Below are positions 8,601-63,779 of a stretch of 64,000 nucleotides of DNA, piece by piece. Below the pieces are notes generated by a model. That model ran no database searches and was not told the DNA's origin. It worked only from the letters and a program-made list of their open reading frames with translations. The DNA is from Bispira polyomma (Eukaryota), in contig OZ287761.1 of NCBI GenBank assembly GCA_965649765.1, positions 3,596,001-3,660,000 on the forward strand, given 5' to 3'. A program made the position numbers and the translations under genes. Numbering within the stretch: position 1 is the first letter of the stretch; each line of letters starts with the position of its first letter.

Positions 8601-11600
8601 CAAAGAAATTTGTTAGAAAAAACAACATATTGCAAAGTGATTAAAAACAGTTGTAAGGTTCTCCCCAAAACTGGTGTTCGTCAGGCAAATTTTAGTCTCA
8701 ACCTCGAGATTTCTTTATGACCTAAAAGCCTGAGCAGAAACGAAGCGCACAGCACAAAACGATCATCAAATACAATGAACACCAATTTAGCAAATGTTTT
8801 GGGGGGCTAACTGACGCAGCATTTTAGATTATATGTCTCTCTTGGCGACACTAACGCAGCACATACAGGAACCTGTTAAACGCTTAGCAACAGTTATTTT
8901 TTAAAATGATGGGTGAAGACAAAGCCATGACAAATTAGTAAGTAAATCTCACACCACAGCTGCTTCAGTTGATTCAATTAAATTTAACAAATTTTAAGAC
9001 CATATTTCCAACAGTTATATTTAAAATGATGGGTGAAGACAAACTCATGGCAAATTAGTAAGCAAATCTCACACCACAGCTGATTAATAGCCCTGTCACA
9101 CCTACACGTGCAGGAGCTTTGTGTGTGATGTTTTTAATTGTTTAGAAACTTAGAACAGACGTAGTAGAAGGTAATGCAAAAGTGAGGATCCCTGGTGCAT
9201 TCGTTCCCGGACGTTGCTTAATGGATATCGTTCAGGAAACGTCTCCGTTTGGTCTGCTACCACGATTATTTCAAACTGTTTGAAATAATCGTGACAGAGC
9301 TTTCCGTTTCTCAAGGACATCTCCACTCATCTTTGTAAGTAGCAGTAAGTAGCACGAAGTAGTGATTCGTCTCCACTTGTCTGTATTCGTCGTGGAACGT
9401 TTCACTAAGCATCATAACGCACCAGAACGCAGCCGTAAGTAGCAGTCACAAAAACGTCACAAAATGTCACAATCGACTGCACCTTTGTCAAAATGACGTC
9501 ACTTTGAAACAAAACTACACCTTTTTTAGATATATTGCTTTGCTATGTTGTGAGACGATAGCACGTGCAGGTGCGACCGAGCTTTTAGCTGATTCAATTA
9601 AATTAACAAATTTCAAGACCATATTTCCAAATAACACCCAGTCCTGGTGTCTTGGTGGTGACTTAGTGAAGCATGGACCAAGGAAGAAAGTTTAAAGTAG
9701 ATCTGCATAAAACTTGTTTGCCCCTTGGCATATAATTAAATAAATCAATATTTAATTCATTAATGATAAAATTATAATGTCCTAATATAGGCGATTGCTA
9801 GATTAAAAAGGCCTATACAGGTTGACATATTGAAATAATGTGAAAGAAAAAGGTTAATAGTCAATCTCCAACATTTAACATCCTTAAATATCATTTTATA
9901 TAGTAAAATTAAGATGTACAATGAACCCTCTATTATCCGAACATATTAGGGGAGATCACGATTTTGTTCGGATGATACAAGGTTCTTAAAACAGAAGATA
10001 TATTTTATTTTTATTAGAATTTTAGAAAATAAACAAAGATTTTAAATTTGGAAATTGTTGATTGTACAAAGATTATATTAAATAATTATTATAAAATTAA
10101 ATTAAAAAGACAAATTAAGAAAACAGGTGAGGGAAGGATAGACAAAATATAAGGTCACAATTAGAGCATTGAAAAATAAAAACATTGAATAAATGAATAC
10201 ATAAAATAACTGTAAATTAAAGGATTCCCTTCCATCCCACACACACACAGATAAATATATGGATAAATATTAATATAAATGTGGGAGTTACATATAAATA
10301 CCAGGAGTGGCTGTACTCGTAAACATTCAATTCTTAGAATTTTCTTAGTTTCAGATTTTTTGGTGAAATAATATCTTCAGCCAATGAAATTGTATGAGGC
10401 AAATGTCTTCAGCCAATGAAATTGTTTGGGACAAATGTCTTCAGCCAGTGTTATTGTTTGAGACAAAAGTTAAAGTAGGATCAGAATCTTTGTGTATAGT
10501 AGCTCAGATATACATGTAAGCATTTCCAACAATATATCCATTATAAACAGTAAGAAATTAGTAAAAAGCCATTTTTCCATTGCGTGTAAATTTCTTTTTT
10601 TCATAGTTGTGAACAAATAACAAATCAGTTTTAGACACAAATATTTCACAAAAAAAAAAAAGAAGCTCTCCAAAAATATTTATTTTAATTTGACCTTGAC
10701 CCTACCTTTGACGATTAAGGATACTGTGACCTTGACCTCTCCGTATTCGTTGATGACAATCAGCGTGAACTTGCCGGCGTCCGCCGCGTTCACTTTGTGT
10801 AAGACGAGCGTGCTGACGTAAAGGTTATTGTCCTCGGTTGCCGTGGCGATCTCGTAACGGTCCACCTGGTGTTCAATGGTCGTCTTGTCCTTCTGCCAGG
10901 TGATCTGTAGAGGGAGATAAACGGTTCTAAGTTTTAGAATTCTGAGCTCGTCTTCACAAAATGGTCTTCGTCTGAACTTAGTCGTAACCTTAACATTTAT
11001 GTCTATAAAACATTTAAGACTGCCTACTTTCAGTCTTAGTGTTAAGAGCAAAGTGAACACTAAGCAAACATCTTTTCTTAATGTTTCTGGAACTAAGACC
11101 AAAATCCAAAGCTTAAGACTAACTTATGACGAAGACCTTCTTTGAATACGGCCTACACAGGCTTACTCAGGTGTTCCTTTGAAATGACCACTATGATACT
11201 CAAAGGTCACCGTATCTCCATCGTGAGTAAATGACTGGCTTAGTGAGGTGACTAAATGACTGGTTTACTCAGGTGTACATATGAAATGACCTCTATTTTA
11301 CCTGTGGCTGAGGCTTGCAATTCAGTTTACACTCAAAGGTCACCGTTTCTGCATCGTGAGTAAATGACTGGCTTAGTCAGGTGAGAAAATGACTGGCTTA
11401 CTTGTGATTACATACAAATTTACCTCTATTTTACCTTCGGCTGCGGCTTTGCGTTCAGTTTACATTCAAAGGTCACCGTCTGTCCCTCGTGAGTAAATGA
11501 CTGGCTTAGTCTATTTTACGTGTACATATGAAATGACGTCTATTTTACCTGTGGTTGCGGCTTGGCATTCAGTTTACACTCAAAGGTGACCGTTTCTCCC

Positions 11601-13336
11601 TCATCCACCACTTGGGCTTTGGGTTTGGACACGATGGTCGGGGCGATGCCTTCCTTCTTGACGGGGGACGGACTCTCCGGGGCTGTCATAGAAACAAGGG
11701 CGGGAAAAACATGGTTAAACTTAACACACAGAACATTACTAATCTGAAGTCTGAGTACAGTAGAACCTCTATTATCCAAACTCCTATTATCCAAATATAT
11801 AATTTTATGAACTCACTTACACTCTACCTAACTAAAATTCCACTTTTAATTGATGAACCTTCTATTATCCAAACAAAATCTGGCTTCCCCCTGCATGTTT
11901 GGATAATGGAGGTACTGCTGTGCTACTATTTGCTTTGACAACAAATTCTGGAATTCACTGTGTACAGGGCGCTGCCATATTAAAAGTAGTTCGCTGCTAC
12001 TATTACAGGATTAGGGTTTCAGTGTCATCCTTAAAGGTTATTATTGTGTATTAGTACGCCAAAATTCAATATGGCCAAGCCCTGTCCAGTAAATTCTAGA
12101 ATTTTTTTTATATATGTCTTCACTACGAAAAGATATTTCACAAATACTATTTTCCTTAGGTGTCAAAATAGTATTTCATTTCTCCTTCAGTTCCTTGCAT
12201 ACAATAGGAAATTGTTATTGAATGCCAGAAGTAGTCTATGGTGTGGCTGTCTGTTAATCTCTTACTAGAAAAATTTCCTTCAGTTCCCGGAGATAGTTTT
12301 CTCTTGGGGTTAAAAGGTGGAAAGTTACAGATATTGACATGGAAGAAGACAAATTTGAAAAAGCAATATTAACAGTATAGCATGACCTGATTTTTTTTCT
12401 AAACTTTAGATTAGAAGTATGTAGAACAATCATTGCATTAAAACTGATTGATTTGCTTGAGCAATTCTGTTATAATTCATACAATTAAAGCAACTAGAAA
12501 GCTTTGCCATACTAATCACTTAATTACAATAATCTCCGAATATATTTTTTTCCCAAGAAGCATATGAAACCCCTCTTCACAAAGAGCAAAAGTCAGGGTT
12601 TCTTTGCAAAGAAAATATTTACAGATGAAGTTATAGTGTTTATTATTGTAGCACTGGCAAAAGATAATTTATAACCAACTGTTTGTTTTACCAAACTTTC
12701 CGACATGAAGGAATAAACAGGATTTGAATCCACAGTAGTAAGAGGCCAGTGATTGTGAAGCAGGCCTTTCTAACTTGTAGCTCACTACAAACTCTCAAGT
12801 GCAGATGTACCTAAACAAGTCAGGATTTGCTGGGGCGGTATTAACAAAATGGCTAAACAAAGACTTTGTCTTAAATCTAGCACAAAAAATATACTACATC
12901 TAAGACAAAGTTTCGGCTTGGACCTTTTGTGAATACGGCCCTTGTAATATAGTCAATAAGCTGCTTAAACGTTGTTTTGCTAAGATACAGTGTCTCTACG
13001 GTGACTGCCAATCAAAACGTACCTAAGACAACTAAATCTGCTGAACACGTTGCAGTACCATGGCTATTTTTAGCCACGACTGTATAACGGCCAGTATCCT
13101 CAGGGTAGGTTTCCTTGATCACTAACGAGCACAGCTTGTCCTCGTCGTAAAACTGCATGAAATCGTCAGACTGTTCCACCACGCTACACTCGTGGAACCA
13201 TGTGACCAGCGGTTTGGGGTTACCCAATACCGTGCACTCGAACAGGGCCGGGGAGCCGTCCTGTACATGCTGGGAAGTGAGGAGGCGGGTAATCTCAGGA
13301 CCCGCGGGTGACCCCTCTAGATCTTCAGCTATACAT

Positions 13337-40300: not shown

Positions 40301-43300
40301 GTACGATCACAGTTTGTTCGTCTTCTGGGATATCAAATTCGAACGTAACTTTTTCAAGTTCCTGTTTCTTTGATCGGACTTCGAGCATTGAGATATGGTC
40401 TTCAACACCTTGCTCAGTTTGCAATACTTCTGTTATTTCTTTAGTATGGTCAATTATAAAACTGACTTCTGCCAGCTCAATGCCTGGTTCTTCTTTTGGT
40501 GTCACTTCAATGCTTGATATGTACTGTTCTTCAGGTAATGTAGAAACCTCTTCCGGGGAAACTTCAGTTTCTGTGCGATTTACATCTGGTTCTACCTTTT
40601 GTACGATTACAGTTTGTTCTTCTTCTGGGATATCAAATTCGAACGTAACTTCCTCAAGTTCCTGTTCCTTTGGTCTGACTTCAAGTGTTGAGATATGGTC
40701 TTCAACACCTTGGTCAGTTTCCAATGATGCTTCTGTGATTTCTTTAGTATGTTCAATTATAAAACTGACTTCAGCAAATTCTGGCTGTGTTTGTTCTTGT
40801 GGTGTGACGTCAATACTTGATGTATACTGTTCTTCAGGCAATACAGAAACCTCTTCAGGAGAAACTTTAGTCTCTGTCCGATATAAATCTGGTTCTACCT
40901 TTTGTACAATCACAGTTTGTTCTTCTTCTGGAATATTTAATTCGAAAGTAACTTCCTCAAGAATCTTTTCCTTTGGTTTCACTTCCAACGTTGTGATATG
41001 ATCTTTGACATCTTGGTCAGTTTCCAATGATACTTCTGTTATTTCCTTAGTATGGTCAATTATAAAACTGACCTCTGCCAGCTCAATGCCTGGTTCTTCT
41101 TTTGGTGTCACTTCAATGCTTGATGTGTAATGTTCTTCAGTCAATGTAGAAATTTCTTCAGTTACAATTTCTTTCGTCTCAGTTTTATATACATCTGGTT
41201 CTACCGGTGTTACTATCACAATTTGTTGGTCTTCTGGAACATCCAATTCGAACGTGACTTCTTGAAGTTCCGGTCCCTCTGGCATCACTTCCAGCCTTGA
41301 CACATGGTCTTCCAATAACTCCACAGTTGATGTCTCTTCTTCAGTACGCTCAATTGTAAAACTGACTTCTGAAACTTCTTTGGGTTCAATGTCTGCTTCT
41401 TCTTTTGGTGAAATGTCAATGCTGGACACATATGGTTGACCAGGCAAAATTGGCACATCTACCTCCAGGTCTATTTCTTGTGTTACTTTCTCCTGTTCTA
41501 CGACTTCATTTTCAGAAATAACTACTTCTTCCAAGATGACTGTTTCATCCACTTGGTCTTCTATTTCCATTTCTTTTGTTTCTACAGTGGTCGACTGACT
41601 GATGTCATACTGGACTTCTGAGACTACTCTGAGCTCCTCTTGTGTTTCAGTTTTTACTTCCTCTTCTACAATCAGCTGTTCCTTTGGTTTTGTCACTACT
41701 GCAGAAATGTACGTATCAGTCACTGACTCTGGCATGTCTACCATCACTTCACCAATCTCCAACTTTGCTGGCACTTCATCTTCAGAAATAACTACTTCTT
41801 CCAACATAATTGTTTCATCCACATGCTCTTCTATTTGCTCTTCTTTGGTTTCTTCACTGTTGTCATACTCGATTTCTGAGACCACTCTGAATTCCTCTTC
41901 TGGTTCGATTTGCACCTGTTCCTCTGTAATCACCTGTTCCTTTGGTTCTGTCACTATGGCTTCATCATCTGAAGTAACTAGCTCTTCCAACACAACTGTT
42001 TCATCCACATACTCTTCTATTTCCACTTCTTTTGTTCCTTCAGTGGTAGGCTCGCTGATCTCAATGGCTTCCTCTTCTTTTGGTGTAATTTTGACGCTGG
42101 TAACATATGGTTCCTCAGCAAATTTTGGCACATCCACCTCTAGGTCAATGTCTTCTGTTACTTTCCCCTTCTCTGTGACTTCTGAAGTTTCATCAACATA
42201 CTCTTCTGCTTCTACTACTTCTACTTCTTCAGTGGTAGATTCACTGATGTCATACTGGACTTCTGAGACTACTTTAAATTCCTCTTGTGTTTTAGTTTTC
42301 ACCTCTTCCTCTGTAAACAGCTGTTCCATTGGTTCCGTCACTACTGCAGAAATGTACGTATCAGTCAATGACTCGGGTAAGTCTACCGTAACTTCACCAA
42401 TCTGCAACTTTTCTGTCGCTTCGTCGTCGCCGATATGTTGCACAATCGTGGTCACACTGTGCCGTGTTTCTTCTATGACACCTAAATTGATTTTTGATTT
42501 CAATACACCCAGACACAATAACTTGACAACAAAAACACATTACAAAGAACTGAATATGATAAAAAAGACCAGGGTCCGTATTCTCCAAAGAAACTCAGGC
42601 TCAAACTCAGACTCCACTCAAACGAAGGCTAATGTGTGTACATGGAACAAGTCTTTACTTTTGACCATTCATTTGAATAGAGCTTTCAGTGCTGAATTTA
42701 AATATGCAGTCAGATGTTACAGAAGTTCAGAGTTAAGCTTGAAATTTTTCGGGAATATGTGCCATAACACAACAACACAAAAGATCTGACACAAAAAAAT
42801 ACATAGTTTTAGTTTTTAAATCACACAAAAAAAAAATCACAAGTGTTTCATATGACAAAAACGACCGGAACAGAAAAAACAAGATTCGACCAAAAACACT
42901 TATACAAGGGTGGGGTGGTGGAGGTAAATGGTATTGGATGTAAACAGCAGTACATTAAAACTTCATAAAGATGGCTCCAGAGTCCTATTTTCAAAATGTA
43001 CATCAGACATACACTAAAGATACCAACGGGCAGTTTTAAAAAAAAAAACCTGTCGTTTACATTTAACACCTTCTTTACATCCACCACCTTTGCCCGTGTA
43101 GTAACTCACTTGACTAACAATATACTAGCTTAAGTTAATGAATAGGTGTACATGATATTACTACAAATATAAGAACATATTAAGGTACAAATTGCTCATA
43201 AAACAATAAACTCTTTTTATATCTGCCTCAATTGTGGCTTAAGCAATTGTGTTAAGACTACAAAGTGTGTAGTTATCTTATCCCAGAGTCTGTCATTAAA

Positions 43301-52300: not shown

Positions 52301-55300
52301 TAAATGACTAGAAGAATAGATGTTTTGTTTACATATAGAACTAAAAAGTAAATAATTTATAAATAAGAAACTTAAAGAGAGAAGAAAAGAAATCATAAAT
52401 ATATAGTAGTAAAATAAAAATAAATAAGTTTTGAGCACATTTTGTAGATTAGAGAAAAAAGAAACACTACAATTTCTAATAAGATGAAAGGCCTTGGTAA
52501 AATTTCTGTCACAATTTTCTTTTTCAAAAAAGAAAATAATTTTTTTTTTTAAATCCTACATTCAAGCGTATAGTTGTCAATATATTTGTTATTCCAAATA
52601 TATTAATGACTAAATTATATTAGCACATTCTCAATTTCTTAGTAAAAGTTCTAATTTCGACACGGTTTTTGCATTTAAACTCGGGTTGTGGCATCTCTTA
52701 GTTTCCACTTGAAGAGCATCTCGATTTCAATGTCATAGTATTCTTCAACGACCACCTGTTCCACGGCGTCTAAAAGTTCTATGGGTTACAGAGACAAAAG
52801 GCCATAAGTTCTAAGGGTTACAGAGACAAAAGGCCATAAGTGTAATGGGTTACAGAGACAAAAGGCCATAAGTTCTATGGGTTACAGAGACAAAAGGCCA
52901 TAAGTTCTATGGGTTACAGAGACAAAAAGCTGTAAGTTCTATGGATTAGATAGACAAAAGGCCAGTTAATAGATTGACAGGCAATTTGAGGATATCTTGC
53001 TTACTTTTTAACTCATTACATAGTCACTAAATTATTATTGCCAAATCTGCATTATGTTAAGGCAAAGATAGGGATTTTTTTATACGTTTATAAAAACAAA
53101 TAATTAAGGAAAGTAGCTAAGAATTAAGGGACTGAATCTTTAATATTCATAAAACCTAAAGCTGTTGCAAAGAAAAAAAATTAGATCAAAAATCTCTGTT
53201 CATATTGCTGCCCAAGAAAGAGCTTTTTGTATTTACAAACACTGAAAAGATATATGGCTATACAGAGATCATGAATAAAGCTCATTGGATAAAATACTGA
53301 GCCAATGAAAATGAGCTGTCATCTCTATTTTGATTGGTGGAAATGAAAGATTAAAAAATTAGATGACTGTTTCATCTCTATTTGGATTGGTGGGATGCAA
53401 GATTCAAATTTTTAAAGACTGCTAAGTATGCCATATTTAACTTTACCAATAAATATACAGTCAGAATTTTACAAACTTGACTTTTTATCTATTCATGGTT
53501 TCTTAAGATAACTTAAAACAAAGAGTATACAGATATAATATTAAACAAAACCCCAAAAACGAAATCCCAACCACCACTACAAATCTATTATACACATAAA
53601 GAAAAATCTATGTAATTTCCATATATTATTTATGTATGGATGTCTGTGCTGTGAGAAACTAATATATACTAAATACTAAAAGCAACCAGTAAGGCTAGGT
53701 TATGGTACATACTAAAACACACATGCATTTTGTGAAACCAGAAACAAAAGAAAAAGTCTGGAGAAAAAAAAACGTGACATATATATATACAGGTTAACAT
53801 GAAGTGGGTCGGCATTATAAAGTGGGTTGATTTTTTATAAAAGTGATTTAAATAAATTCATCTCTTGAAATTCACAGATTCAATAAAAAAATATCAAAAG
53901 TACTAATGTATTAACCAAAATTAACAGAGTTCATTTTTGTCCATAGAACAATTTAGTGGAGAGATAAAACAAATCGACCCCACTTTACAACTTGCCGACC
54001 CACTGTATGTTAACCCATGTATTTAATATACACGGCGATCTCTAGGCTAACAATCCGAGTTTGACACAATATTCCTGTGTCCTTTTTTGACAAACTACTA
54101 TAAAAAATACTACCCGTGGTTATAAACGCACATACATAGATGTAAAAGGTTTTGGTAGAAAAATCCTATACACAAAATACAATCCCTTATATGACTTCCT
54201 GTGCTTTTTTACAATTTTCAAACTTGAAGTAGAAATGAAGGTTTTTACATTCTTAAACTTGAAGTAAAATAAATAACTTCAAAGTGACTAAGAGAATTAA
54301 TCTTTTATATTAATTTATATATTATTTTATAGATAAGCTGCTTTTAACCCTATCAAGGCCTATATTGACGTAGCGTTTCATACATTCACTGAAACTATAT
54401 CGGGCAGCAAAACAGCAGACACAACCCAAAAATTATTGTTTTACTAGGCTATTTTTCAGTCCTGCGCTTTTGCAACAAGGTTTAATACTGCAAAATATCT
54501 TCTATTTAAAGCAAATTATACACGAGGCAGTTAGAAAATGTTGTAATTGTTTCTTGTTGTGTGTTTTAGTGTGACTCAAGTTATCTGTAAACCTCTTACC
54601 CCGGAATTCCATTCATGTGTACAACGGTAATATATACGGCATCGAAAGGGTTAAAACGCTTAAAACAGCTCAACAATAACATCAAAGAAGCACCTAGATA
54701 TACTTGTCTATTACACACACAAACTGAGGTATAACCTAGGCAACTGATCACATCCGACCTCTGTGAATACGCATTATCCAGTAGACCCGGTGAAACCAGA
54801 ACCAGCATAATAGTGGAATATCTCTATATTAAATAGAGAACCAATTTTCTAGTGCCATATAGTCAAAAATTTTAGTTTTTTTTAAATTAGGTATTAAGTA
54901 CAAAATTTAGCAATAAGTGAAACCAAATCCTGTGGATATTGGAGATTTGACTTGTGGATATTGGATGTTTTGACTTGTACAGAGTCTACTGTAAAATATA
55001 GTAGAGCCTCTATTATCCAAACATGTTGGGAGAGGAAAATTTTGTTCGGATAATTAAAAGTTCAAAAACAAAAATAAGAGCTATTTACATAAAAAACAAT
55101 AGGAACATGTGGAAAAGTAGTTTATAAAATTGAATATTTGGATAATACAAGTTCGGATAATAGAGGTTCTCTCTACTGTATATAATAACTAAACATTTTC
55201 TTAAGCACAAGGTAAACAGAAGCTACACTGAGCATGCTCAGCAATGATTGACAGTGGTGGGCGGAGCTCTAAACCCCTAAACTTTCTTTTAAGCACATGA

Positions 55301-58300
55301 GCACATGGTGAACAGATGCCACACTGAGCATGCTCAGCAATGATTTACAGTAGTGGGCGAGGCTCTAAACCCCTAAACTTTTCTTTTAAGCACATGGCGA
55401 ACAGAAGCCACACTGAGCATGCTCAGCAATGATTGACAGTAGTGGGCGGAGCTCTAAAGCCCTCAGCTTACTTTCTACTAGGAGTTCCATCCATGTCTTG
55501 CTGATCCCATGCTGGTTTTTGGCCTCACACGTGTACTCAGCCTCGTCCTCAACGGTCACTCGGTCAATGGTCAGTGTACACCTGCCGCGTCTGTACTCCA
55601 GCAGGAAGTGCTCTGTACTCGTTATCACCTTACCGTTCTGAAAAATATAGACAAATTGTTATAGTCACATATCAGATTTTTAATGAGAGATAACAGCAGC
55701 TCATTGTACCACAGAATGTTTGAGTAGGCTTATAATTTTAAAACTTCTCAAAACTAGAGTTAACTGTACCAGCTAGATTTATGACTATTGAAGACATAAC
55801 ACAAACTTCTGTTAAATTTCACCAATTAGGTGACAATCGAGTATTTAGCCGGTACCTATAACATCACACCTGAGTACCTAGCTGGTATCTATTATGTCAC
55901 ATGTTAGTAGCTGCCCGGTACCTATTATATCACACTTGGGTACCTACCTGGTACCTAATATAGGAGTACTTACCTGGTACCAGGTGATCTCTGCCTCAGG
56001 TAAAGCCTCTACCTCACACTCTAGCCTGATAGGTAAACTCTCATTAAACACCTGAGTACCTACCTGGTATCTATTACATCACATGTTAGTACCTAACTAT
56101 ATCTAATACATCACACATGAGTACATACTAAAGGAGTACTTACTTAGTACCAGGAGATCTCTGCCTCAGGTAACGCCTGTACCTCACATTTCAGTCTGAT
56201 GGGTAAACTCATTACATCACACCGCAGTACCTAACTGGTACCTATTATAGGAGTACCTACCAGGTACCTATTATATGAGTACTTACCTGGTACCAGGTGA
56301 TCTCTGCCTCAGGTAATGCCTGTACCTCACACTCCAGTCTGATAGGTAAACTCTCAAAGATTTCTTTGTTCTCAAGTTGTTTGGTGAACACAGGAGCCTG
56401 GGGTTGTGTCAGTTCAAAGGCTGAAACAATAAGTTATAACTCATAAAGTGAGTGAAATTAGACATTAAACTGGGTATCTGTCGGCTCAAAGGCTGAAACA
56501 ACAAGTTATATTAGATAAAGTGACTGAAATTAAACATTAAACTGGGTGTCTGTCAGATCACAGGCTGAAACAATAAGTTAGGTCACATAAAGTGAGTGAA
56601 ATGAGACATTAAACTGGCTACTGTCGGTTCAAAGGCTAAAACAATAAGTTATATTTGATAAAGTGACCAAAATTAGACATTAACTGGGTGTCTGTCACCT
56701 CAATGGTTGAAACAAAAAGTTAGATCACATAAAAGGACTGAAACAGTGAAGATTGTATTTTGTGCTGATATAATATATGTAATTTATTTGACCATTTACC
56801 CAGTACATATTACTTCAGCTGGCACTTGATTATCAGTATTACTTTCATCGGTGATTATTACTGAATTACTTGCGCCAACCCTAATTTTTGAAACATGAAC
56901 AGCTAAAATCCCTTTAAGTTGAAACTCATTGATGTGGGTTTGTATGTCGCTGGTCATGTCACAAGGAAGAGATTTAAACGTTAAAGAAGCCAGTACTATA
57001 AACCATCAACCTATAGCGAGCATGTGACAAACTTTCCCACGTGAAGGAAAGAACAGGGATTCAAACCCACATTGGTGAGAGGCCAGTGATATTGTGAATC
57101 TAACACTTCTCACCACTGTTGGAGATTTTAAAATATTTAAACAAGATTTAGTGCTACTAATATTCTTGTTAATATGTAGAATAATATTCTTTATTATTAT
57201 GTATATGAACATTTGTAGCTATTGTAGCCAGCTTACTTTTCTCTGTGCGCTGTTTGTGTTGTACTGTCATGGAGACCTCCACTTTGTTGTACTCCTCAGA
57301 CACCTGCTGTTCCCGTGACAACCTCCTCTGGACTGTGGTCTGTTTTTGTGGGGTAATCAACGCCTCCTCTGTAACGGGGGACTCAGGTTCAGAGTCAGGG
57401 CGAGACGGGGCTACACATAAAAATAGAACAGAATTGGAGGAATTTGTAAAGAACAGTAGAACATGTCTCGTATCTCCAACAGTTTCAACAATTACTTGAT
57501 GGGATTATTTCTTCTTCAGAAGTACCTTCTTTGATTCCAAATGTTTTTCTTAGTGCAACATTTAAGTTCTACTTTTAATCAAGACATGTTAACATCTTAT
57601 TTTGGCATGTAAATTATACAGAAAACATTTGATTAATGAAAAATATATCATAAATATCGAAATAAGAGGGCTATGGAATCTACAAGACCCAACTCAACAT
57701 CCATTATCAAAAAAAATTATTTTGGATATAGAATTAAATGCTTTAAATATGTCCCGATATATGTACAGAAACATGTACATTAAACAATTATAAATAACTT
57801 CATCAACCAACATTCCCCTCACCCCACCCCAAATTTACAAATGACGATCTAGCTAGGCAATAGATGTCTACTTACGCAGTACTCCCCCCCCCCATTTTAC
57901 AATGAATACCTAGCCACACACAAATATATCTCTCAAAACAAAGTAAGTTTTTATCTTTTTAATTTAATTAATTTTATTTTTATTAGTTTTTAATCTTCCT
58001 TAAGTTACCAATGAATACCTAAGCCACACAAACCCCATCTCTCTACTTACGCAGTACTGTGAGGAATGCGGTGGTCTCGCAGGTTCCTGCATCATTCACG
58101 GCCTTCACCTTGTACTCCCCTTCGTCCTCCGGTATCACATCCAGGATCTCCAGGCTACACACGCCCTCCTCGTACACAATCTCCACGTCCTGGCTGGCCT
58201 TGATCACCTCGTTGTCCACGTACCATGTGACCTCGGGTCTCGGCACACCCGTCAGGTGACACTTGAGCATTGTTCTGTCTCCGTCCAAGGCCGTCACGTC

Positions 58301-61300
58301 TGACAACGGGATCTCGAACACGGGAGCCACTAACGCGTGCGTAATTTCAGTCCTGTGCCTTTCGCTAATCTCCGTGGTTTCTCCCTTCTTGATGACCTCG
58401 ACTTCCTCGCGAACGACCTCTGTGACCTGTTGCTGTTCTTCAGTGACCTCCCTCACGGCGCGCACGATTTGGGTTGCCATCTCCGCGGCAGCCACGTCCA
58501 TTTCCACCGTGGTTGTCTGCTGCTCCGCCATTTTGACCTCCACGGCCTTGGATTCACCCTCCAATGTGGCCTCGACCTTCATCTTGATGACCTGTTGCTG
58601 CGCCTGCGTCTCCTTGGCGGTTGTTGTTACACTTGTTTTCTGCATCATCATTTGCTGCTGTTGCTGCTGTTGTGCCCTCATCCTGATCTCCATCTCCATC
58701 TGTTCTTTGGCTTGTTCCTCCGTCACTTCCCGGCCCTGTATTCTCGCCTCTAGTCGGTACTTCTCGACCACGGTCGGCTCCCACTCGGGCTGGACGTAAC
58801 TGGGGATCATGTAGACCTCTTTGATGTTGCTGATCAGCTCGGAGGTCACGCCTTCTGGAAGCACCTGCTCCCCAACGGGTTCTACACGCATTGGCGGCGG
58901 CTCCATCTTCCCGCTCTCGGTGGTTTCTGACGGTACATCAGCAATTTGTGACTGTTCTTCTTCAAGTACCTCTACATCATGCCTGGTCTCCATGACTTCC
59001 ACCTGTTCTTCAGATGTCGCCACTAGCGACGGTCGGGCGGCCTCTTTTTCCGCCGCTTCCAAGTCAACAATAATCTCTTCCTCCTGAGTTTTCTCCTCCA
59101 AGAACTCAGTCTGGGCGGTTTCCGTGTCTTCCACCGACTGCTGTTCTTCCAGCATCATCGTAAGCATCTGCTCGCGCTGCTGCTTGTCGGCGGTGACCGT
59201 TTCCATGGGGACATCGAAGCCTTCGACGGCTGGCTCTCGGGCTAAGTGAAAGATCTCCTCCTCCTCGTCGGGAGACAGGTAATCCTCCACCATCCCGACG
59301 TGGGTCGTTTCTCTCTTTTGATCCTCCACGGCTTCCAGATCCACCCGGATCTCCTGCTCAGCGGTTTCCTCTGGAGCCAGGATGTCGATTTCGTCCTCGA
59401 GACTCGCCTGTTTAGTGACTTCCAGCACGTGTTCCACACGACTCTCCTCTTTGGGTATGACCGAGGGTTCAGCCATCTCCACGACGATGTCCTCTTCCTG
59501 TGTGGTCTCGCTGGTTAGCTGGGTGATCTCTTCATGAAGTTCTGAGTGTACGTGTTCCTCTACTGGTTGTACCTACAAATATACAGGGGAAATGATGGAT
59601 CAATACAACTTCACTTTTAAGCCTTTCGAAGCCCAGGAGAAAACTATCTCAAGAAGCTGAATTTGATTTCATTTGGGTTTAATGTCGTTTTAAACGCATT
59701 GTATGGGGCATCACAGGGGGTGGTTTTAGTGCTGGGTAAAACCAGTAAACCAGCGACCATTGGCAAGGAACCGCCAACTTTCCCACTTAAATCCCAGCTG
59801 AGATTCTAACCGGAACCCTACAGGTGGGAGGTGAGTGTGTTAGCACTGCACCACCGAGGTACCCCCTCAAGGAACTGAAGGAAATTACTCGAGAATAGGT
59901 TACAGATAGCTCGAGTCACTAAACACACACCACAGACTACTTACGACATTCAATATTGGTGTATCGTAGAATTTTTTAAACAAAGGGATGTCTGCTGTAC
60001 TAACAATTCACTATTGTGAGGGAACACGATAAAAATTAAATTTTTTTTGTTTTTACAATTTTGGGGTGTCGACTGCTTGCCAACAGACATAGGTTCTGGG
60101 AATAAAAAAATGCTTTGCAAAACAAAAGTTAACCTTATGTAACAACCCTTCTAAAACCGGCACTATTTTTTCTCTCTCTCGTATTCCTACACACCTGTGT
60201 CTCAGCCTGGACTTCGGCCTCCGTTTGGGACATTTCGACAGTGATTTCCTCTTCCATGGTGGATTCTGTAGGGATTAGTCCAATCTGTTCTGGAGATTCG
60301 GGACGCACCTCTTCAAGCACTGGCTGAACCTATGAAAACACAGAATAAAATACATGTACAGTTGAAACCCATTAAACTTGAATTATTTGGGTTTTATGTG
60401 ACTTTAAACAGCTTAGGTCATATCGACAGCCATATATCACAGTGCAGGAATCCAGTACTGAAGCACTGTAAACCCATTTAAATCAATTTTTAAGGGGCCA
60501 CGAAAAATACCTGTATATTAAAAGATTCCCATATTGGATTTGGTGTATGAATACATAATGCTAAACTACTAAGGACAACACTAAACCCCAATGCTATGAT
60601 AGTAGAGACAAACTACTTTTCAAAATGGCGACAGGCATAATGGATTTGGCGTATTTATACATAATGTTAATCCCCCTAAGGATAACACTAAACCCTCTAT
60701 AGAAGTGACAAACTACTTTTCAATTTGGCCGCCAGTGTGTATTTCCTGAATTTATAGCACCCGCCCCTATTTCTAATACCTGTGTCTCCGCTTGTATCTC
60801 GGCTTCAGTTTGAGACATTTCTACAACGATTTGTTCCTCCTTGGTGGTATCTATGGAGACCATTCCGATCTCCCCGGGAGATTCAGGTCTCACTTCCTCA
60901 TGCACGGGTTGGACCTAGGATTCACACAAATACAGCAAATCTAGCTAATGACAAGGGGAAAAAGTGTTTAAAACGATCATTACAAGCAGACCTATATTTT
61001 CTAAAGGGCAGTAAAAACTCTTCAAATAGCACACACAAGTACGGAATTTGAATTTACAGTTGGATTTTATGTAACAGTTTGGGTCATATCACGATTCACA
61101 ATGGCCACATTTAATGTTGGAAGGAAAGAGCACGGCTGATACTTAGTTAAATGTCATTAATATAAATCTGAGGTATACAAGTGAAACCATCCTTTAAAAC
61201 AGGTCTATTTTACCAGAATGTAGTTGGGTTTTAAGTCATTTTCGACTGCTTAGATCAAAATTGTCAAGACCGACCGATTCAATGGTGTAATTTGAATTTG

Positions 61301-63779
61301 GATATTTAACGTCCACTTTAGTACCTGTTTAGGTTATATTGGGACGGGTAGTTGGAAGCGCCGGAGGAAACACTGCATACAGTTGATCAAGGTTCTGCAC
61401 TGAAACCCATGGCTCACAGTCAGGAACTACCACCTTTCCCACATAAGCATCGACGGGATTCGAAGTCATGCCGCCCAGAGGTAAGAGACCAGTGATTGTG
61501 AAGCGCAATGCTTGCTAACCACTAGGCCACCGCGGCCCCGAAACAAGTGGAGAAGTGTTATTGTCAATGTACATGTTGGAATGTTGAACAAGTTATATAA
61601 CTTGTATTCTACCACGAAGAGCTTGTTTCGCCGGTTCTGATTGGTTTAAAGTACGCTAAAACCTAGGACTACAACGCAAGAAAGAATGAGATCATTTTCC
61701 ACCAAACTGTACTGCAAACAAAATACCCGGAGACAGCCTTTTATTAATGATTCATTATGTACACCTAATTATGGTACTTCAGGAGACGGGGAAATCTACC
61801 TGGGATTCGGCTTGACATTCCTCCTCAGTTATAGACATTACCACGACAACTTGCTCTTCAGTAGTGGAATCGGTAGGAACAAGCTCGATTTGATCAGGGG
61901 ATTCCGATCTAACCTCTTCATGCACAGGTTCAACCTATATACACACGGCAAAGGGTTTGTGTAAAACGGGAAACATTCGACAATTCCTATAGTCTTACTG
62001 GGTGAAAAACTATCACATCAAAACAAATGAAGTCAGTACATAGATATTGATGATTATTCTTGATAAAAATTAGTAAAAAAAACTATTTCTTTACAAAAGG
62101 CTTAAGATTTTGGGTTTTAACGTTGTTTTCAACACGTTTTGTGTGATATATCGTGATGATGGGCCGTTCATTGGTGAAAGAAATCAGAACATGCTTAGTT
62201 TATCAAGGTTTTTCTGCTCTGCAAACCACCAGCCTCACATATACATACCAGGGCCATGCGAACACTTCATACTTTCGTGAGGACATCTGTCCTTAAAAAA
62301 TCATCATAATTTTCCTAGTATGTACAGATAATAGATCTTCTAAGCCTAAGGTACAAGTTTTCATCTTAATAAACGACAAGTACCTGGGATTGCGCTTGTA
62401 ATTCAGCCTCAGTTTTAGACATTTCTACATATATTTGTTCCTCCATCGTGGATTCTGTAGAGACTAGGCCGATTTCATCGGGAGATTCAGGTCTTACTTC
62501 TTCATGCACGGGTTGAACCTTATATACACAGCACAAAAGGTTACAAGGTAAAGGAGTTCGCATACACACAACACAAAACAGTGAAGACGTTAGAACCTTT
62601 TATCAGGCTCAGCCTGATATTGTTTTCATTCTAAAAAGGGAGCCGCCATTTTTGAAAACGGCACTGCCATCTTATCAATCGAGGATTGATTGGAAGCAAT
62701 CGACCCATCCAAATTATTGTTAGATTCAGGCACAGCCTGTCTGAATATATAGTGGCCATATCAATTGTAGTGTATTTCACACTGTGCACCCGTGTGTTTT
62801 TTTTAAAAGACAACTCTTGTTTACACCGGATTCAGTGAATTTCAAGAGGTGAAATGCTCTACATAAGTTTTTCTTGTGGTCTTTTAAAAGATTGGCCCAC
62901 TTTATTTTTGTATTAGTCAAACTTTTATTATCCGAATATTTCAACTTTTGAATAATAATAAACGCTTTGAATCTCACCACATTTAACATTTTTATTAAAT
63001 CCCCGTGTTAAAAACGAAATCTACCTGCGTCTCTGCTTGTAATTCAGCCTCAGTTTTGGACATTTCTACAAATATTTGTTCCTCCATGGTAGATTCTGTA
63101 GGAACAAGGCCAATTTCTCCAGGAGATTCGGGTCTAACTTCTTCATGCACGGGTTGGACCTAATATCACACAACACACACACACACACACTATGGTACAC
63201 ACTGAAAACGGGTTAAAACCTTTGATGAAACTGTCGACAAAATCTTCCACATCTTCAATCTGCCCAATTTTACTTTTGCTATTGCTTAATTAGCAGGCCC
63301 AGACATATTAAATTTTCCTAATAATAACATACGTGAAATAAGATATTTCAGCAATCTAGAAGAGCCATGGTTTGTTAATGACTGAGGTGAGATGTTTTTC
63401 ATAGAAGTGGTCATGGTGGCCATCTTGTTTTTTCAAAAGAAGGCTATATTAAGTCACAGGCAACATTTCATAGCAATGAATATATCCAGCAAATTTGAGG
63501 AAGCGAGCCGCAATAGTTGTCCCGCTAGAGTGTAAAATTTCAGATAACAAACAATGGCCTATAACGCTTGTGACCCCTTAAAACTTGCTTATAAATATCT
63601 CATAGATATAATGCCAGTCTAGATGTCATGTTCTTGTTTAGTACCTGAGTCTCAGCGCGTATTTCGGATTCTTGCTGAGATAACTCCACTATAATGTGTT
63701 CTTCCATCGTGGAGTCTGTTGGGACGAGTTCTATCTCACTGGGGGATTCAGGTCTCACTTCTTCATGCACTGGTTGGAC
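2360..63779 (-). CDS. Giant titin/Sallimus(kettin)-like muscle protein gene, internal portion (23 predicted exons, about 8,135 aa; 6 I-set Ig domains, SH3, acidic repeat regions, DFRxxL array)
   Basis: All 23 exons have AG/GT boundaries and matching phases (sum 24,406 nt, phase 0 to phase 1). I-set Ig signatures (P.F...L...v..G....l.C...G.P.P.v.W; D.G.Y...A.N..G), an SH3 domain and long acidic low-complexity regions fit the titin family. No start or final stop in the window. Confidence 0.9.
2757..3001. mobile_element. PIF/Harbinger-like MITE, TIR GGGGCCGTATTCACAAA-like
   Basis: Inverted termini and palindromic cttagtcttaac subtermini; about 10 relatives in the window. Confidence 0.65.
4196..4420 (-). 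mobile_element. SINE copy (same family)
   Basis: Shared blocks caacagcttaggtcatatc / gaagaaaccagtgctgaag / tgacaaactttcccac / cacattggtgagaggcc. Confidence 0.75.
4561..6094 (-). CDS. 1534-nt exon with ten QxDFRxxL motifs and a Ser/Pro-rich tail
   Basis: ORF 4555..6060 extended to a TTTTACAG acceptor; AAG|GTGTGA donor; phase 2 to 0. Confidence 0.9.
6970..7018 (-). CDS. 49-nt micro-exon (EVTQKIDFKKQLKKKEV) with a DFRxxL-like motif
   Basis: TTTTTCTAG acceptor, GTAAGT donor; phase 1 to 2 exactly bridges the flanking exons. Confidence 0.85.
7590..7777 (-). mobile_element. SINE copy, 5'-truncated
   Basis: Same conserved blocks; intact B box GGTTCGAATCC on the minus strand. Confidence 0.72.
8095..8281. 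mobile_element. Tc1/mariner-type MITE (TA|CAGTCAAACC...GGTTTGACTG|TA)
   Basis: Terminal inverted repeats with TA target duplication. Confidence 0.65.
9088..9584. mobile_element. About 500-bp non-autonomous DNA transposon with imperfect 23-bp TIRs
   Basis: AGCCCTGTCACACCTACACGTGC versus reverse complement AGCTCGGTCGCACCTGCACGTGC; interrupts the second copy of a local duplication; CpG-richer than its flanks. Confidence 0.7.
10706..10904 (-). CDS. 199-nt exon, C-terminal half of an Ig domain (ITWQKD...ADAGKFTLIVINEYGE...LIVK)
   Basis: CAG acceptor, G|GTAGGG donor, phase 0 to 1. Confidence 0.9.
11160..11548 (-). repeat. Degenerate tandem copies of the 3' 54 nt and donor of exon 11549-11682 (11435-11488, 11302-11355, remnant about 11196-11222)
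   Basis: Direct alignment; the two full copies keep AG|GTAAAATAG. Confidence 0.85.
11549..11682 (-). CDS. 134-nt exon, N-terminal half of an Ig domain (APTIVSKPKAQVVDEGETVTFECKLNAKPQPQ)
   Basis: CAG acceptor, CAG|GTAAAA donor, phase 1 to 0. Confidence 0.9.
11756..11921. mobile_element. Tc1/mariner-type MITE
   Basis: tacagtagaacctctattatccaaac ... gtttggataatggaggtactgctg. Confidence 0.68.
13023..13328 (-). CDS. 306-nt exon encoding a complete I-set Ig domain
   Basis: GPEITRLL...FECTVLGNPKPLVTW...EDTGRYTVVAKNSHG; AG/GT, phase 1/1. Confidence 0.93.
13334..13361. repeat. (CA)n/(TG)n microsatellite at a 3' splice site
   Basis: Dinucleotide run immediately upstream (transcript sense) of the acceptor at 13329-13330. 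Confidence 0.9.
14497..14658 (-). mobile_element. SINE copy, internally deleted
   Basis: Same conserved blocks. Confidence 0.65.
14919..17267 (-). CDS. 2349-nt exon: acidic unique region with a C-terminal SH3 domain (about 14990-15153)
   Basis: ORF 14854..17367; SH3 signature YIAVTAYEPESDDVLSLHEGEKLELL...DWWMVRK...REGYVPGQYL; CAG acceptor, GTAAGA donor, phase 1/1. Confidence 0.92.
17415..17643. mobile_element. PIF/Harbinger-like MITE
   Basis: ggagccatat..tcacaaaaggtcttag ... gaccttttgcgaatatggcccc. Confidence 0.62.
17901..17956 (-). CDS. 56-nt small exon (FVQTKQEVSEDSTDMTIQ)
   Basis: TAG acceptor, AG|GTAAGA donor, phase 2 to 1. Confidence 0.8.
18581..18611 (-). CDS. 31-nt micro-exon (APSETVETSIE)
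   Basis: TTTTACAG acceptor, GTGAGT donor, phase 1 to 2; frame restored by the next exon. Confidence 0.8.
19776..20034. mobile_element. PIF/Harbinger-like MITE (different interior)
   Basis: CAG|ggctggtattc ... gaatacggccc|CAG; interior resembles 42571-42760 and about 650-880. Confidence 0.6.
20602..24981 (-). CDS. Giant 4380-nt exon with 4 x 185-aa repeats
   Basis: ORF 20477..24970; TTTTTAG acceptor, GAA G|GTAAAA donor; phase 1/1 (1460 codons). Confidence 0.9.
21065..23284 (-). repeat. Coding tandem repeat, 4 x 555 nt, near-identical
   Basis: Equivalent antisense ORFs recur at 21336, 21891, 22446 and 23001 (period 555). Confidence 0.95.
27828..33986 (-). CDS. Giant 6159-nt exon with about 32 copies of a 46-aa repeat
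   Basis: ORF 27796..33951 extended to a T9-ACAAG acceptor (VDRRFSTEINLQM...); donor ACA G|GTACTG; phase 1/1 (2053 codons). Confidence 0.86.
27950..32345 (-). repeat. Coding tandem repeat, about 32 x 138 nt, with an 828-nt higher-order period
   Basis: Unit ends ...ISTAGIEMPSETKV; equivalent ORFs at 29349/30177/31005 and 29901/30729 are 828 nt apart. Confidence 0.95.
35245..35425. repeat. About 32-bp minisatellite (acttatactggttctagttatagagatattcg), about 5.5 copies
   Basis: Direct inspection. Confidence 0.85.
36566..36808 (-). mobile_element. SINE copy
   Basis: Same conserved blocks. Confidence 0.7.
36941..42481 (-). CDS. Giant 5541-nt exon, Glu/Val/Thr-rich, with 101-aa, 11-aa and about 13-aa repeats
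   Basis: ORF 36834..42518; TTAG|GT GTC acceptor, CAA G|GTACCC donor; phase 1/1 (1847 codons). Confidence 0.88.
37230..38170 (-). repeat. Short acidic coding repeats: about 33-nt (EDEEIIEETIQ) and about 36-39-nt (DEVVEDTVEEMAKQV-like)
   Basis: Visible in both the translation and the DNA. Confidence 0.8.
38600..41450 (-). repeat. Coding tandem repeat, about 303-nt (101-aa) units, about 9 copies with degenerate ends
   Basis: 'DHTKEITEV' anchor recurs at about 39247, 39538, 39841, 40144, 40444, 40747 and 41050. Confidence 0.88.
43843..44418 (-). CDS. 576-nt exon (possibly split by a 64/66-nt intron at about 44254-44319) ending in an I-set Ig domain
   Basis: CAG acceptor, G|GTTTGT donor, phase 1/1; LAPTFVEYL...CKILGNPEPYVVW...CGTYSAKASS Ig motif. 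Confidence 0.82.
44955..45147. mobile_element. Tc1/mariner-type MITE
   Basis: tagtgaaacctttattatctgaac ... gtttggataatagaggtcctactgta. Confidence 0.65.
45585..45696. mobile_element. Short Harbinger-like MITE
   Basis: CAG-flanked; paralogues at about 7219, 12831 and 6558. Confidence 0.6.
46735..46882 (-). mobile_element. SINE copy, internally deleted
   Basis: Tail and tRNA-like head present, core missing. Confidence 0.65.
47342..47580. mobile_element. PIF/Harbinger-like MITE
   Basis: ggggccgtcttcacaaaagg ... ccctttcgtgaatacggcctc; CAG on both flanks. Confidence 0.68.
48243..48431. mobile_element. Tc1/mariner-type MITE (aaaacctcagtatagtgaac...gttcactatatggaggttttactg)
   Basis: Terminal inverted repeats. 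Confidence 0.55.
48497..48735 (-). mobile_element. SINE copy, near full length
   Basis: All family blocks present. Confidence 0.75.
50636..50848 (-). mobile_element. SINE copy, near full length
   Basis: All family blocks present. Confidence 0.75.
52675..52769 (-). CDS. Candidate alternative terminal exon (NAVEQVVVEEYYDIEIEMLFKWKLRDATTRV*)
   Basis: TTTTAG acceptor at 52770-52771, with a second in-frame acceptor 9 nt upstream; phase 1 matches the previous exon; coding-like, GC-richer island ending in TAA; no convincing donor. Confidence 0.55.
52772..52964. repeat. About 32-bp minisatellite, about 6 copies (aagttctatgggttacagagacaaaaggccat)
   Basis: Direct inspection; abuts and includes the acceptor of the candidate terminal exon. 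Confidence 0.9.
54997..55180. mobile_element. Tc1/mariner-type MITE
   Basis: tagtagagcctctattatccaaac ... gttcggataatagaggttctc..tactgta. Confidence 0.68.
55195..55465. repeat. About 90-bp triplication containing the palindrome CTGAGCATGCTCAG
   Basis: Three copies directly downstream (transcript sense) of the donor at 55471. Confidence 0.88.
55472..55637 (-). CDS. 166-nt exon, C-terminal half of an Ig domain (NGKVITS...EDEAEYTCEAKNQHG...LLVE)
   Basis: CAG acceptor, A|GTAAGC donor, phase 0 to 1. Confidence 0.92.
55845..56286 (-). repeat. Degenerate tandem copies of the 3' part and donor of exon 56287-56420 (55974-56042, 56144-56210) among GGTACC-rich short repeats
   Basis: Direct alignment; both copies keep GTAAGT. 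Confidence 0.85.
56287..56420 (-). CDS. 134-nt exon, N-terminal half of an Ig domain (APVFTKQLENKEIFESLPIRLECEVQALPEAEITWYQ)
   Basis: CAG acceptor, CAG|GTAAGT donor, phase 1 to 0, Ig A-C strand motif. Confidence 0.9.
56406..56745. repeat. About 71-bp minisatellite, about 4.5 copies, containing the acceptor of exon 56287-56420
   Basis: Unit ...tgtcagttcaaagg|ctgaaacaataagtta...aaactggg. Confidence 0.85.
56930..57118 (-). mobile_element. SINE copy
   Basis: tgacaaactttcccacgtgaagg...ggattcaaacccacattggtgagaggcc. Confidence 0.68.
57237..57410 (-). CDS. 174-nt linker exon (PPSRPDSEPESP...QRRLSREQQ...RTEK)
   Basis: TAG acceptor, A|GTAAGC donor, phase 1/1, open frame. Confidence 0.85.
58051..59572 (-). 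CDS. 1522-nt exon: acidic/Gln-rich region ending in an I-set Ig domain (APVFEIPL...DEGEYKVKAVNDAG)
   Basis: ORF 58043..59482 extended to a TAG acceptor; donor C|GTAAGT; phase 0 to 1; begins with a degenerate copy of the 45-aa unit. Confidence 0.92.
59659..59865 (-). mobile_element. Related SINE subfamily copy
   Basis: Similar tail and aactttcccac block, different head (cf. 35570-35730). Confidence 0.55.
60195..60329 (-). CDS. 135-nt tandem exon 6
   Basis: AG/GT, phase 0/0; overlaps ORF 60135..60320. Confidence 0.9.
60780..60914 (-). CDS. 135-nt tandem exon 5
   Basis: AG/GT, phase 0/0; overlaps ORF 60720..60905. Confidence 0.9.
61220..61540 (-). mobile_element. Composite/nested SINE copies
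   Basis: Ends ctaaccactaggccaccgcggcccc (intact A box on the minus strand); two tail segments. Confidence 0.65.
61800..61934 (-). CDS. 135-nt tandem exon 4 (VEPVHEEVRSESPDQIELVPTDSTTEEQVVVVMSITEEECQAESQ)
   Basis: AG/GT, phase 0/0, homologous repeat; absent from the ORF track, translated by hand. Confidence 0.88.
62384..62518 (-). CDS. 135-nt tandem exon 3
   Basis: AG/GT, phase 0/0; matches ORF 62366..62569 segment VQPVHEEVRPESPDEIG...AQSQ. Confidence 0.9.
63025..63159 (-). CDS. 135-nt tandem exon 2 (VQPVHEEVRPESPGEIGLVPTESTMEEQIFVEMSKTEAELQAETQ)
   Basis: AG/GT boundaries, phase 0/0, (TG)n tract upstream of the acceptor. Confidence 0.9.
63645..63779 (-). CDS. 135-nt tandem exon 1 (VQPVHEEVRPESPSEIELVPTDSTMEEHIIVELSQQESEIRAETQ)
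   Basis: TAG acceptor, GT donor, phase 0/0, open frame, paralogous to the five following exons. Confidence 0.9.

Follow-up and report, generated by a model that had tools for sequence, protein, structure and literature searches.

In amphioxus, minisatellites whose repeat unit crosses an exon–intron boundary, on the 5′ or the 3′ side, have been described as "mirages" in Adh3, the globin genes BflGb6 and BflGb9, troponin C and PGBD5 (PMC3087553, PMC3902484). According to the accessible parts of these accounts, the units are 10–160 bp long and are repeated one after another inside the neighboring intron, the copies are 81–100% alike, many, but not all, of them keep GT or AG, and RT-PCR revealed no aberrant mRNA. 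The generating mechanism is called unclear there, with slippage or unequal crossing-over proposed for the arrays (PMC3087553). Human minisatellites whose first unit lies across a donor are known from F7 IVS7, 6-16, CBS, LAMIN B2 and PDGF (PMC1557585), and the VNTR of ABCA7 intron 18 is a similar donor-spanning case (PMC5954066). The accessible sections of these reports place the pseudo-donors after the real donor, with the most upstream donor normally used, as shown by experiment for F7 (PMC1557585), and mention minor pseudo-donor use in 6-16 and CBS (PMC1557585) and in ABCA7 (PMC5954066). The Rogers model, as outlined in the part of PMC3087553 at hand, derives intron gain from tandem duplication of proto-splice sites, or internal gene duplication. 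A literature search, with most subscription journals outside its reach, returned mirages only from amphioxus, together with the VNTRs in human genes; a count across a whole genome was not among the results.

Here, we analyzed a 64,000-nt stretch of the Bispira polyomma genome (C14:3596001-3660000, hereafter the window; assembly size, 1.035 Gb), in which the end of an Ig exon recurs together with its donor inside the following intron. The phenomenon is the one already known as mirages, and the locus at 55 kb of the window is an ordinary example of it in a titin-like gene. As in amphioxus, the unit spans the exon–intron boundary (67–70 exon nt, the donor and the intron start), the copies follow one another in the neighboring intron (offsets 143 and 313 on the donor side; 72 nt × 4.7 on the acceptor side), unit sizes and copy identities are similar, and many, not all, copies with a mapped site retain GT (183/216) or AG (132/160). 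In contrast to the amphioxus cases, as far as the accessible text describes them, the host is a non-chordate instead of a lancelet and the array is compound, an echo with a nested 26–33-nt minisatellite; moreover, whereas those accounts contain neither a genome-level count nor a neutrality test in their accessible parts, a nine-gene count and a neutrality test are given below. COX1 of this genome, read with translation table 5, matched annelids best (73–76% identity), with no lancelet among the 120 matches listed, as fits a spiralian and probably an annelid. The comparison with the human cases, drawn from partial texts, is looser: an F7 unit includes no more than 4 bases of exon and the ABCA7 unit begins at GT, whereas here the copied coding sequence amounts to 50–70 nt, and roughly a tenth of the splice sites is affected across the nine genes. 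The starting point is shared with the Rogers model in the form outlined above, namely intragenic tandem duplications that carry splice signals along, but we saw no sign here of an echo recruited as an exon or creating a new intron.

The titin-like host gene and its echoed exon

Over some 380 kb, the host gene contains long runs of I-set Ig domains, Ig/Fn3 super-repeats and repeat exons rich in Glu, a domain pattern from which we take it to be titin/twitchin-like. It has the same domain layout as the invertebrate titin/twitchin-like giant muscle proteins, a likeness of domain pattern, and Atlas matches to it were named titin and twitchin-like; a homolog search with a single Ig exon returned two matches and was uninformative. 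Our own sequence-based model, in which some exon ends are wrong, covers the window plus 200 kb on each side and comprises 208 Ig/Fn3 exons, 8 of 218 HMM clusters having been excluded as echoes prior to modeling. Phases were consistent in 204/209 introns and in 60/60 introns that split a domain. Elsewhere in the window, giant Glu/Val-rich repeat exons (27935-32343, 36837-42539 and 20769-24820; 138-nt × 32, 303-nt × 7 and others) represent the spring-like regions of the titin-like protein, and a small exon (VQPVHEEVRPES...) is present in several diverged whole-exon tandem copies at about 60138-63779.

The working exon at the 55-kb locus (56287..56420, on the reverse strand like the other exons, echoes and arrays of both echo loci) is 134 nt long, runs from phase 1 to phase 0, encodes FELTQ...EITWYQ and ends in the donor CAG/GTAAGT. 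In a profile comparison it corresponded to positions 1-36 of the Pfam I-set model, and positions 37-90 were matched by the next exon (55472..55637), whose acceptor scores at the 88th percentile; because these matches adjoin, the two exons form one Ig domain. Within the 649-nt intron, the exon end and donor are repeated 143 and 313 nt from the real donor. The differences reported for both echoes in a first-pass annotation of this DNA were recounted exactly. The nearer echo (56138..56210; the exon's last 67 nt plus GTAAGT), whose exon part ends at 56144, differs at 7 of 66 nt, 4 of them third codon positions (56144-56210); its GTAAGT is intact, and its last codon has changed from CAG to TAA, a stop. 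In the farther echo (55968..56043; the last 70 nt plus GTAAGT), 4 differences were found in 69 nt (55974-56042), 3 synonymous and one Q>E, with CAG/GTAAGT intact and a donor score equal to that of the real donor. The frame of the farther echo is open from AGs located 78 and 90 nt upstream; scored against real acceptors, these in-frame sites come out at the 0th and 4th percentile, and an own acceptor of normal strength is absent ahead of the echo. Both offsets are out of frame, a transcript read through to one or the other echo donor runs into a stop at 10 codons of intron, and a product using the echo at 55974 would carry a duplicated half Ig domain.

The compound array (55825..56298) contains, between and behind both donor echoes, a 26–33-nt minisatellite that forms the spacers and derives from the donor region of the working exon. 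A 14-nt palindrome occurs in that region at 56285-56298 and again at 55972-55985, and a 104-nt family in three copies was found at this locus. On the other side of the exon, an acceptor mirage (56398..56762) consists of about 5 copies (× 4.7) of a 72-nt unit, each with about 23 exon nt plus the intron end; two of these copies, at 56492 and 56564, reach scores similar to that of the real acceptor and are followed by in-frame stops. Thus echoed on both flanks, the exon had been annotated without mention of its acceptor echoes or of the spacer minisatellite. A further tandem array (55204..55474; 89–96-nt unit), whose copies do not include at least 12 exon nt, abuts the donor of the next exon. Short dispersed elements, with a depth thousands of times background and similar ends in many introns, were observed at 55025-55170 and 57022-57097.

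The repetitive context alone might suggest an assembly artefact, the probability of which is practically negligible: the copies differ from one another by 4–10 bases, and the locus is not an artefact because Logan contigs from three DNA runs (at most two samples of one study, maybe the assembly's own source) tile it with 0 differences. The array had a single length in these contigs, in which rare variants get lost and which stem from at most two samples. No heterozygous sites were listed in the unique part of window 55000-59700, a single 4.7-kb stretch with contigs unbroken up to 2.8 kb, and this absence is unexpected if the species is highly polymorphic.

The first-pass annotation had paired this locus with an earlier case, a 134-nt Ig half-exon at 11549..11682 with the donor CAG/GTAAAA, followed by two donor echoes, one ending at 11435 and the other at 11302, and by a third, partial copy (11198..11511; period, 114–133). 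The echo ending at 11435 carries 9 differences in 54 nt, 7 at third positions, and that ending at 11302 carries 7, with 4 at third positions. Coordinates and phases bear out that both echo loci follow a 134-nt phase 1-to-0 Ig half-exon, and our count agrees with the pooled 18/27 third-position differences over the four echoes; since two differences are common to both echoes of the earlier case, 16/25 are distinct. The proportion 18/27 gave P = 0.0004 against one third, P = 0.014 against a simple model of a neutral echo and an exon that changes only silently (0.438), and P = 0.13 against the 0.54 observed over all echoes. As 54% of all echo differences fall at third positions, the share at these loci is typical.

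Frequency and placement of echoes in nine genes

The survey covered nine genes on seven chromosomes (514 introns), namely the titin-like gene and eight genes for dynein heavy chains located on six further chromosomes, with models made from sequence only. In the titin-like gene, a local duplication spans 30/207 donors and 13/207 acceptors (43/414 splice sites, 10.4%), and in 369 introns of the dynein genes the count is 35 donors plus 42 acceptors (77/738, 10.4%). Long, unclear or long-ORF-bearing introns were omitted, leaving 145/207 introns of the titin-like gene (62/207 omitted) for the event test described below and 369/436 modeled introns of the dyneins (67/436 omitted). Two of the eight dynein genes were without echoes, those on C5 (0/7 events) and C6 (0/1 event); the C5 dynein has low GC3 (0.42), and the C6 dynein is a compact gene with AT-rich introns and one local duplication. 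It is possible that the echo-generating process differs between genome regions. Large mirage arrays were also observed in the titin-like gene, with 18 copies behind a donor near C14:3423899, whose differences from the exon are nearly all at third positions, 20 copies behind a donor near C14:3703163 and 7 copies before an acceptor near C14:3398269.

Duplication units were mostly 50–150 nt, with exon parts of 12–129 nt. Echo breakpoints did not fall at splice sites in the titin-like and dynein genes, and neither fixed breakpoints nor a junction motif was seen by eye in 37 donor echoes. Donors with echoes scored higher than others (6.5 vs 5.7, P = 0.003), which may reflect better-placed model ends, and echoed exon ends were slightly GC-richer (0.503 vs 0.484, P = 0.002). 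Two features suggested by the pairing of the loci did not hold up in the survey. Donors are not special: the dyneins have 35 echoed donors vs 42 acceptors, the pooled ratio per event is 58:53, and the 30:13 excess is confined to the titin-like gene. Nor are 134-nt Ig half-exons, as donor-echoed exons measure 115–837 nt, have phases like all exons and include dynein exons; the only two 134-nt exons of the model are both echoed, but this is a post hoc observation.

A comparison of splice-site-spanning duplications with random placement, proposed in the first-pass annotation as a genome-wide count, was run in the nine genes. In the event test, each duplication unit was placed at random on the collapsed gene in 20,000 simulations. 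Splice sites were spanned by 34/60 events in the titin-like gene (12.7 expected) and by 77/144 in the eight dyneins (32.4 expected), that is, by 111/204 events against 44.5 expected in the pooled set, an approximately 2.5-fold excess. The excess persisted under a repeat-masked null, with a mask built from only 1.26 Mb (111/158 vs 48.2, odds 5.4), among copies at least 88% identical (44/87 vs 17.0) or at least 92% identical (24/48 vs 9.2, odds 4.2), and among copies with at least 25 exon nt (85/178 vs 33.3). None of the 20,000 simulations was as high as the pooled and subset counts. Counted per position, however, little excess was found, as 10.4% of splice sites and 8.7–9.0% of intronic positions lay in a local repeat; this control counts every array unit and the mirages' own copies, and it was set aside as the main test. 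The notion of a systematic process at exon ends therefore holds per event (111/204 vs 44.5); the selection on coding or splicing that it implies is not supported.

Duplications that were purely intronic and non-dispersed also clustered near exons, 34/47 lying within 50 nt of one (11.4 expected), and pairs of dispersed repeats showed a weak excess (15/47 vs 9.5). Because purely intronic duplications hug exons too, the focus of the process is the exon with its flank and not the splice dinucleotide. Repeat-like sequence accounted for 6% of the intron sequence lying up to 50 nt from an exon and for 37% at 200–400 nt.

Divergence of the echoes from the working exons

Changes were polarized in 445 echo copies at 124 boundaries; 8/77 dynein arrays contributed no copy with at least 18 exon nt. 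Changes private to echoes were distributed over the codon positions as 80/81/95, with 154/5857 at 0-fold vs 41/1419 at 4-fold sites (P = 0.58). A frameshift or stop was present in 117/445 copies. Loss of GT (0.076 per base) and of AG (0.091) proceeded at about the 0-fold rate (0.074 and 0.095, respectively). As private changes are codon-blind and GT/AG decay at the 0-fold rate, the echoes as a class are without coding or splice-site selection; the test was pooled across echoes and is not specific to the echo at 55974. At sites where the exon alone differs, the distribution was 17/13/60, and the third-position bias is thus located at sites where the working exon differs.

The ratio of 4-fold to 0-fold divergence was 3.4 (95%, 2.9–4.1), whereas a neutral echo and an exon with only silent change predict about 2, and a plain neutral-echo model fared worse by about 14 log units and was rejected. 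Models with a silent offset (0.12 with a slope of 2.1, or about 0.13 with a slope of 2) and one with a slope of 3.5 fitted similarly. Among copies with zero 0-fold differences, 20/112 four-fold sites still differed. CpG decay was dismissed as the source of the silent excess, just 11/90 exon-only differences being of CpG type. Biased gene conversion was also rejected: intron GC does not rise towards exons, so that biased conversion tracts have left no trace there. The intronic part of the unit (0.12–0.13) was discarded as a neutral clock, being biased downward by local alignment. Exon GC3 is 0.57–0.64 in most of the nine genes, far above the intron GC of 0.32–0.36, and private echo changes from S to W (131) outnumber those from W to S (69).

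Discussion

The echoes are very probably mirage-type tandem duplications that mutate as unconstrained DNA while splicing likely keeps to the first donor. A DNA segment reaching from inside the exon into the intron would be copied behind itself, and the copies would then change like unconstrained DNA. Judging from the F7 experiments and the amphioxus RT-PCR reports, splicing likely stays on the real donor, and the echoes presumably survive because the exon itself stays intact, with donor echoes placed behind it and acceptor echoes in front of it. The arrays may grow by slippage or unequal crossing-over, as proposed in the accessible text on amphioxus mirages (PMC3087553). Because minor pseudo-donor use is on record for 6-16, CBS and ABCA7, low-level echo-donor products, probably degraded by NMD, are possible.

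Function as alternative donors or cassette exons under protein or splicing selection would fit the 18/27 third-position differences, the silent excess above the simple neutral model and, at 55974, the open frame with two in-frame AGs and a donor equal to the real one. It is nevertheless very unlikely, considering that private changes ignore codon position, GT and AG decay neutrally, many copies are broken, the upstream AGs score very low in comparison with real acceptors and half an Ig domain would occur twice in the product; the amphioxus mirages, in the accessible parts of the reports, are without aberrant mRNA (PMC3087553, PMC3902484). Purifying selection on codons, as a cassette or mutually exclusive duplicated exon would show, was not found in the pooled test, in which 0-fold and 4-fold rates were equal.

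A mere appearance of enrichment, in which duplications arise at random and exon-anchored ones survive longer while transposons dilute the intron centers, is unlikely. The near-equality of the per-position control and the scarcity of repeat-like sequence close to exons are in its favor, and the exon does protect one copy, so that an exon-anchored pair is detectable for longer, a bias that young-only subsets lessen but do not abolish. Against it, the excess holds under the repeat-masked null and at 92% identity or above, shielding just one copy of a pair should raise the count no more than about twofold, and duplications lying wholly within introns are found close to exons too. Mutation coupled to splicing or transcription at exon borders (polymerase pausing, R-loops, nucleosome edges or RNA-templated repair) is rather unlikely; the exon-edge focus, the unit size of mostly 50–150 nt and the higher donor score and GC content of echoed ends agree with it, but breakpoints lie off the splice sites, donors and acceptors show no overall asymmetry, the silent offset is left without account, and the donor-score gap may stem from model ends.

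As to the origin of the mirage-type duplications, we tentatively suggest, with rather less than even confidence, that recombination or repair started in a conserved exon copies from the homolog, and that the end is then re-joined out of register in the neighboring intron. Such a homolog-templated origin would account for the concentration at exons as well as for the surplus of silent differences, since a copy derived from the homolog would carry a silent offset from the start. It needs high allelic diversity, and the lack of heterozygosity in the 4.7-kb stretch counts against it. The broader proposition, that tandem duplications are born preferentially at exons through inter-homolog repair failing in divergent intron and that each echo is a fossil exon allele, is doubtful. 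With exon-hugging intronic duplications and a silent-site excess at hand, the mechanism is testable with population and RNA data.

What these results add to the known mirages is quantitative: in a non-chordate, they touch about 10% of splice sites across nine genes spread over seven chromosomes, with a 2.5-fold excess per event and neutral decay. The arrays are natural tests of the choice among identical splice sites. If the proposed origin were true, the built-in silent difference of about 12% would preserve a record of former allelic diversity, and mirages would provide a measurable trace, throughout the genome, of inter-homolog repair initiated in exons as well as a large source of latent splice sites.
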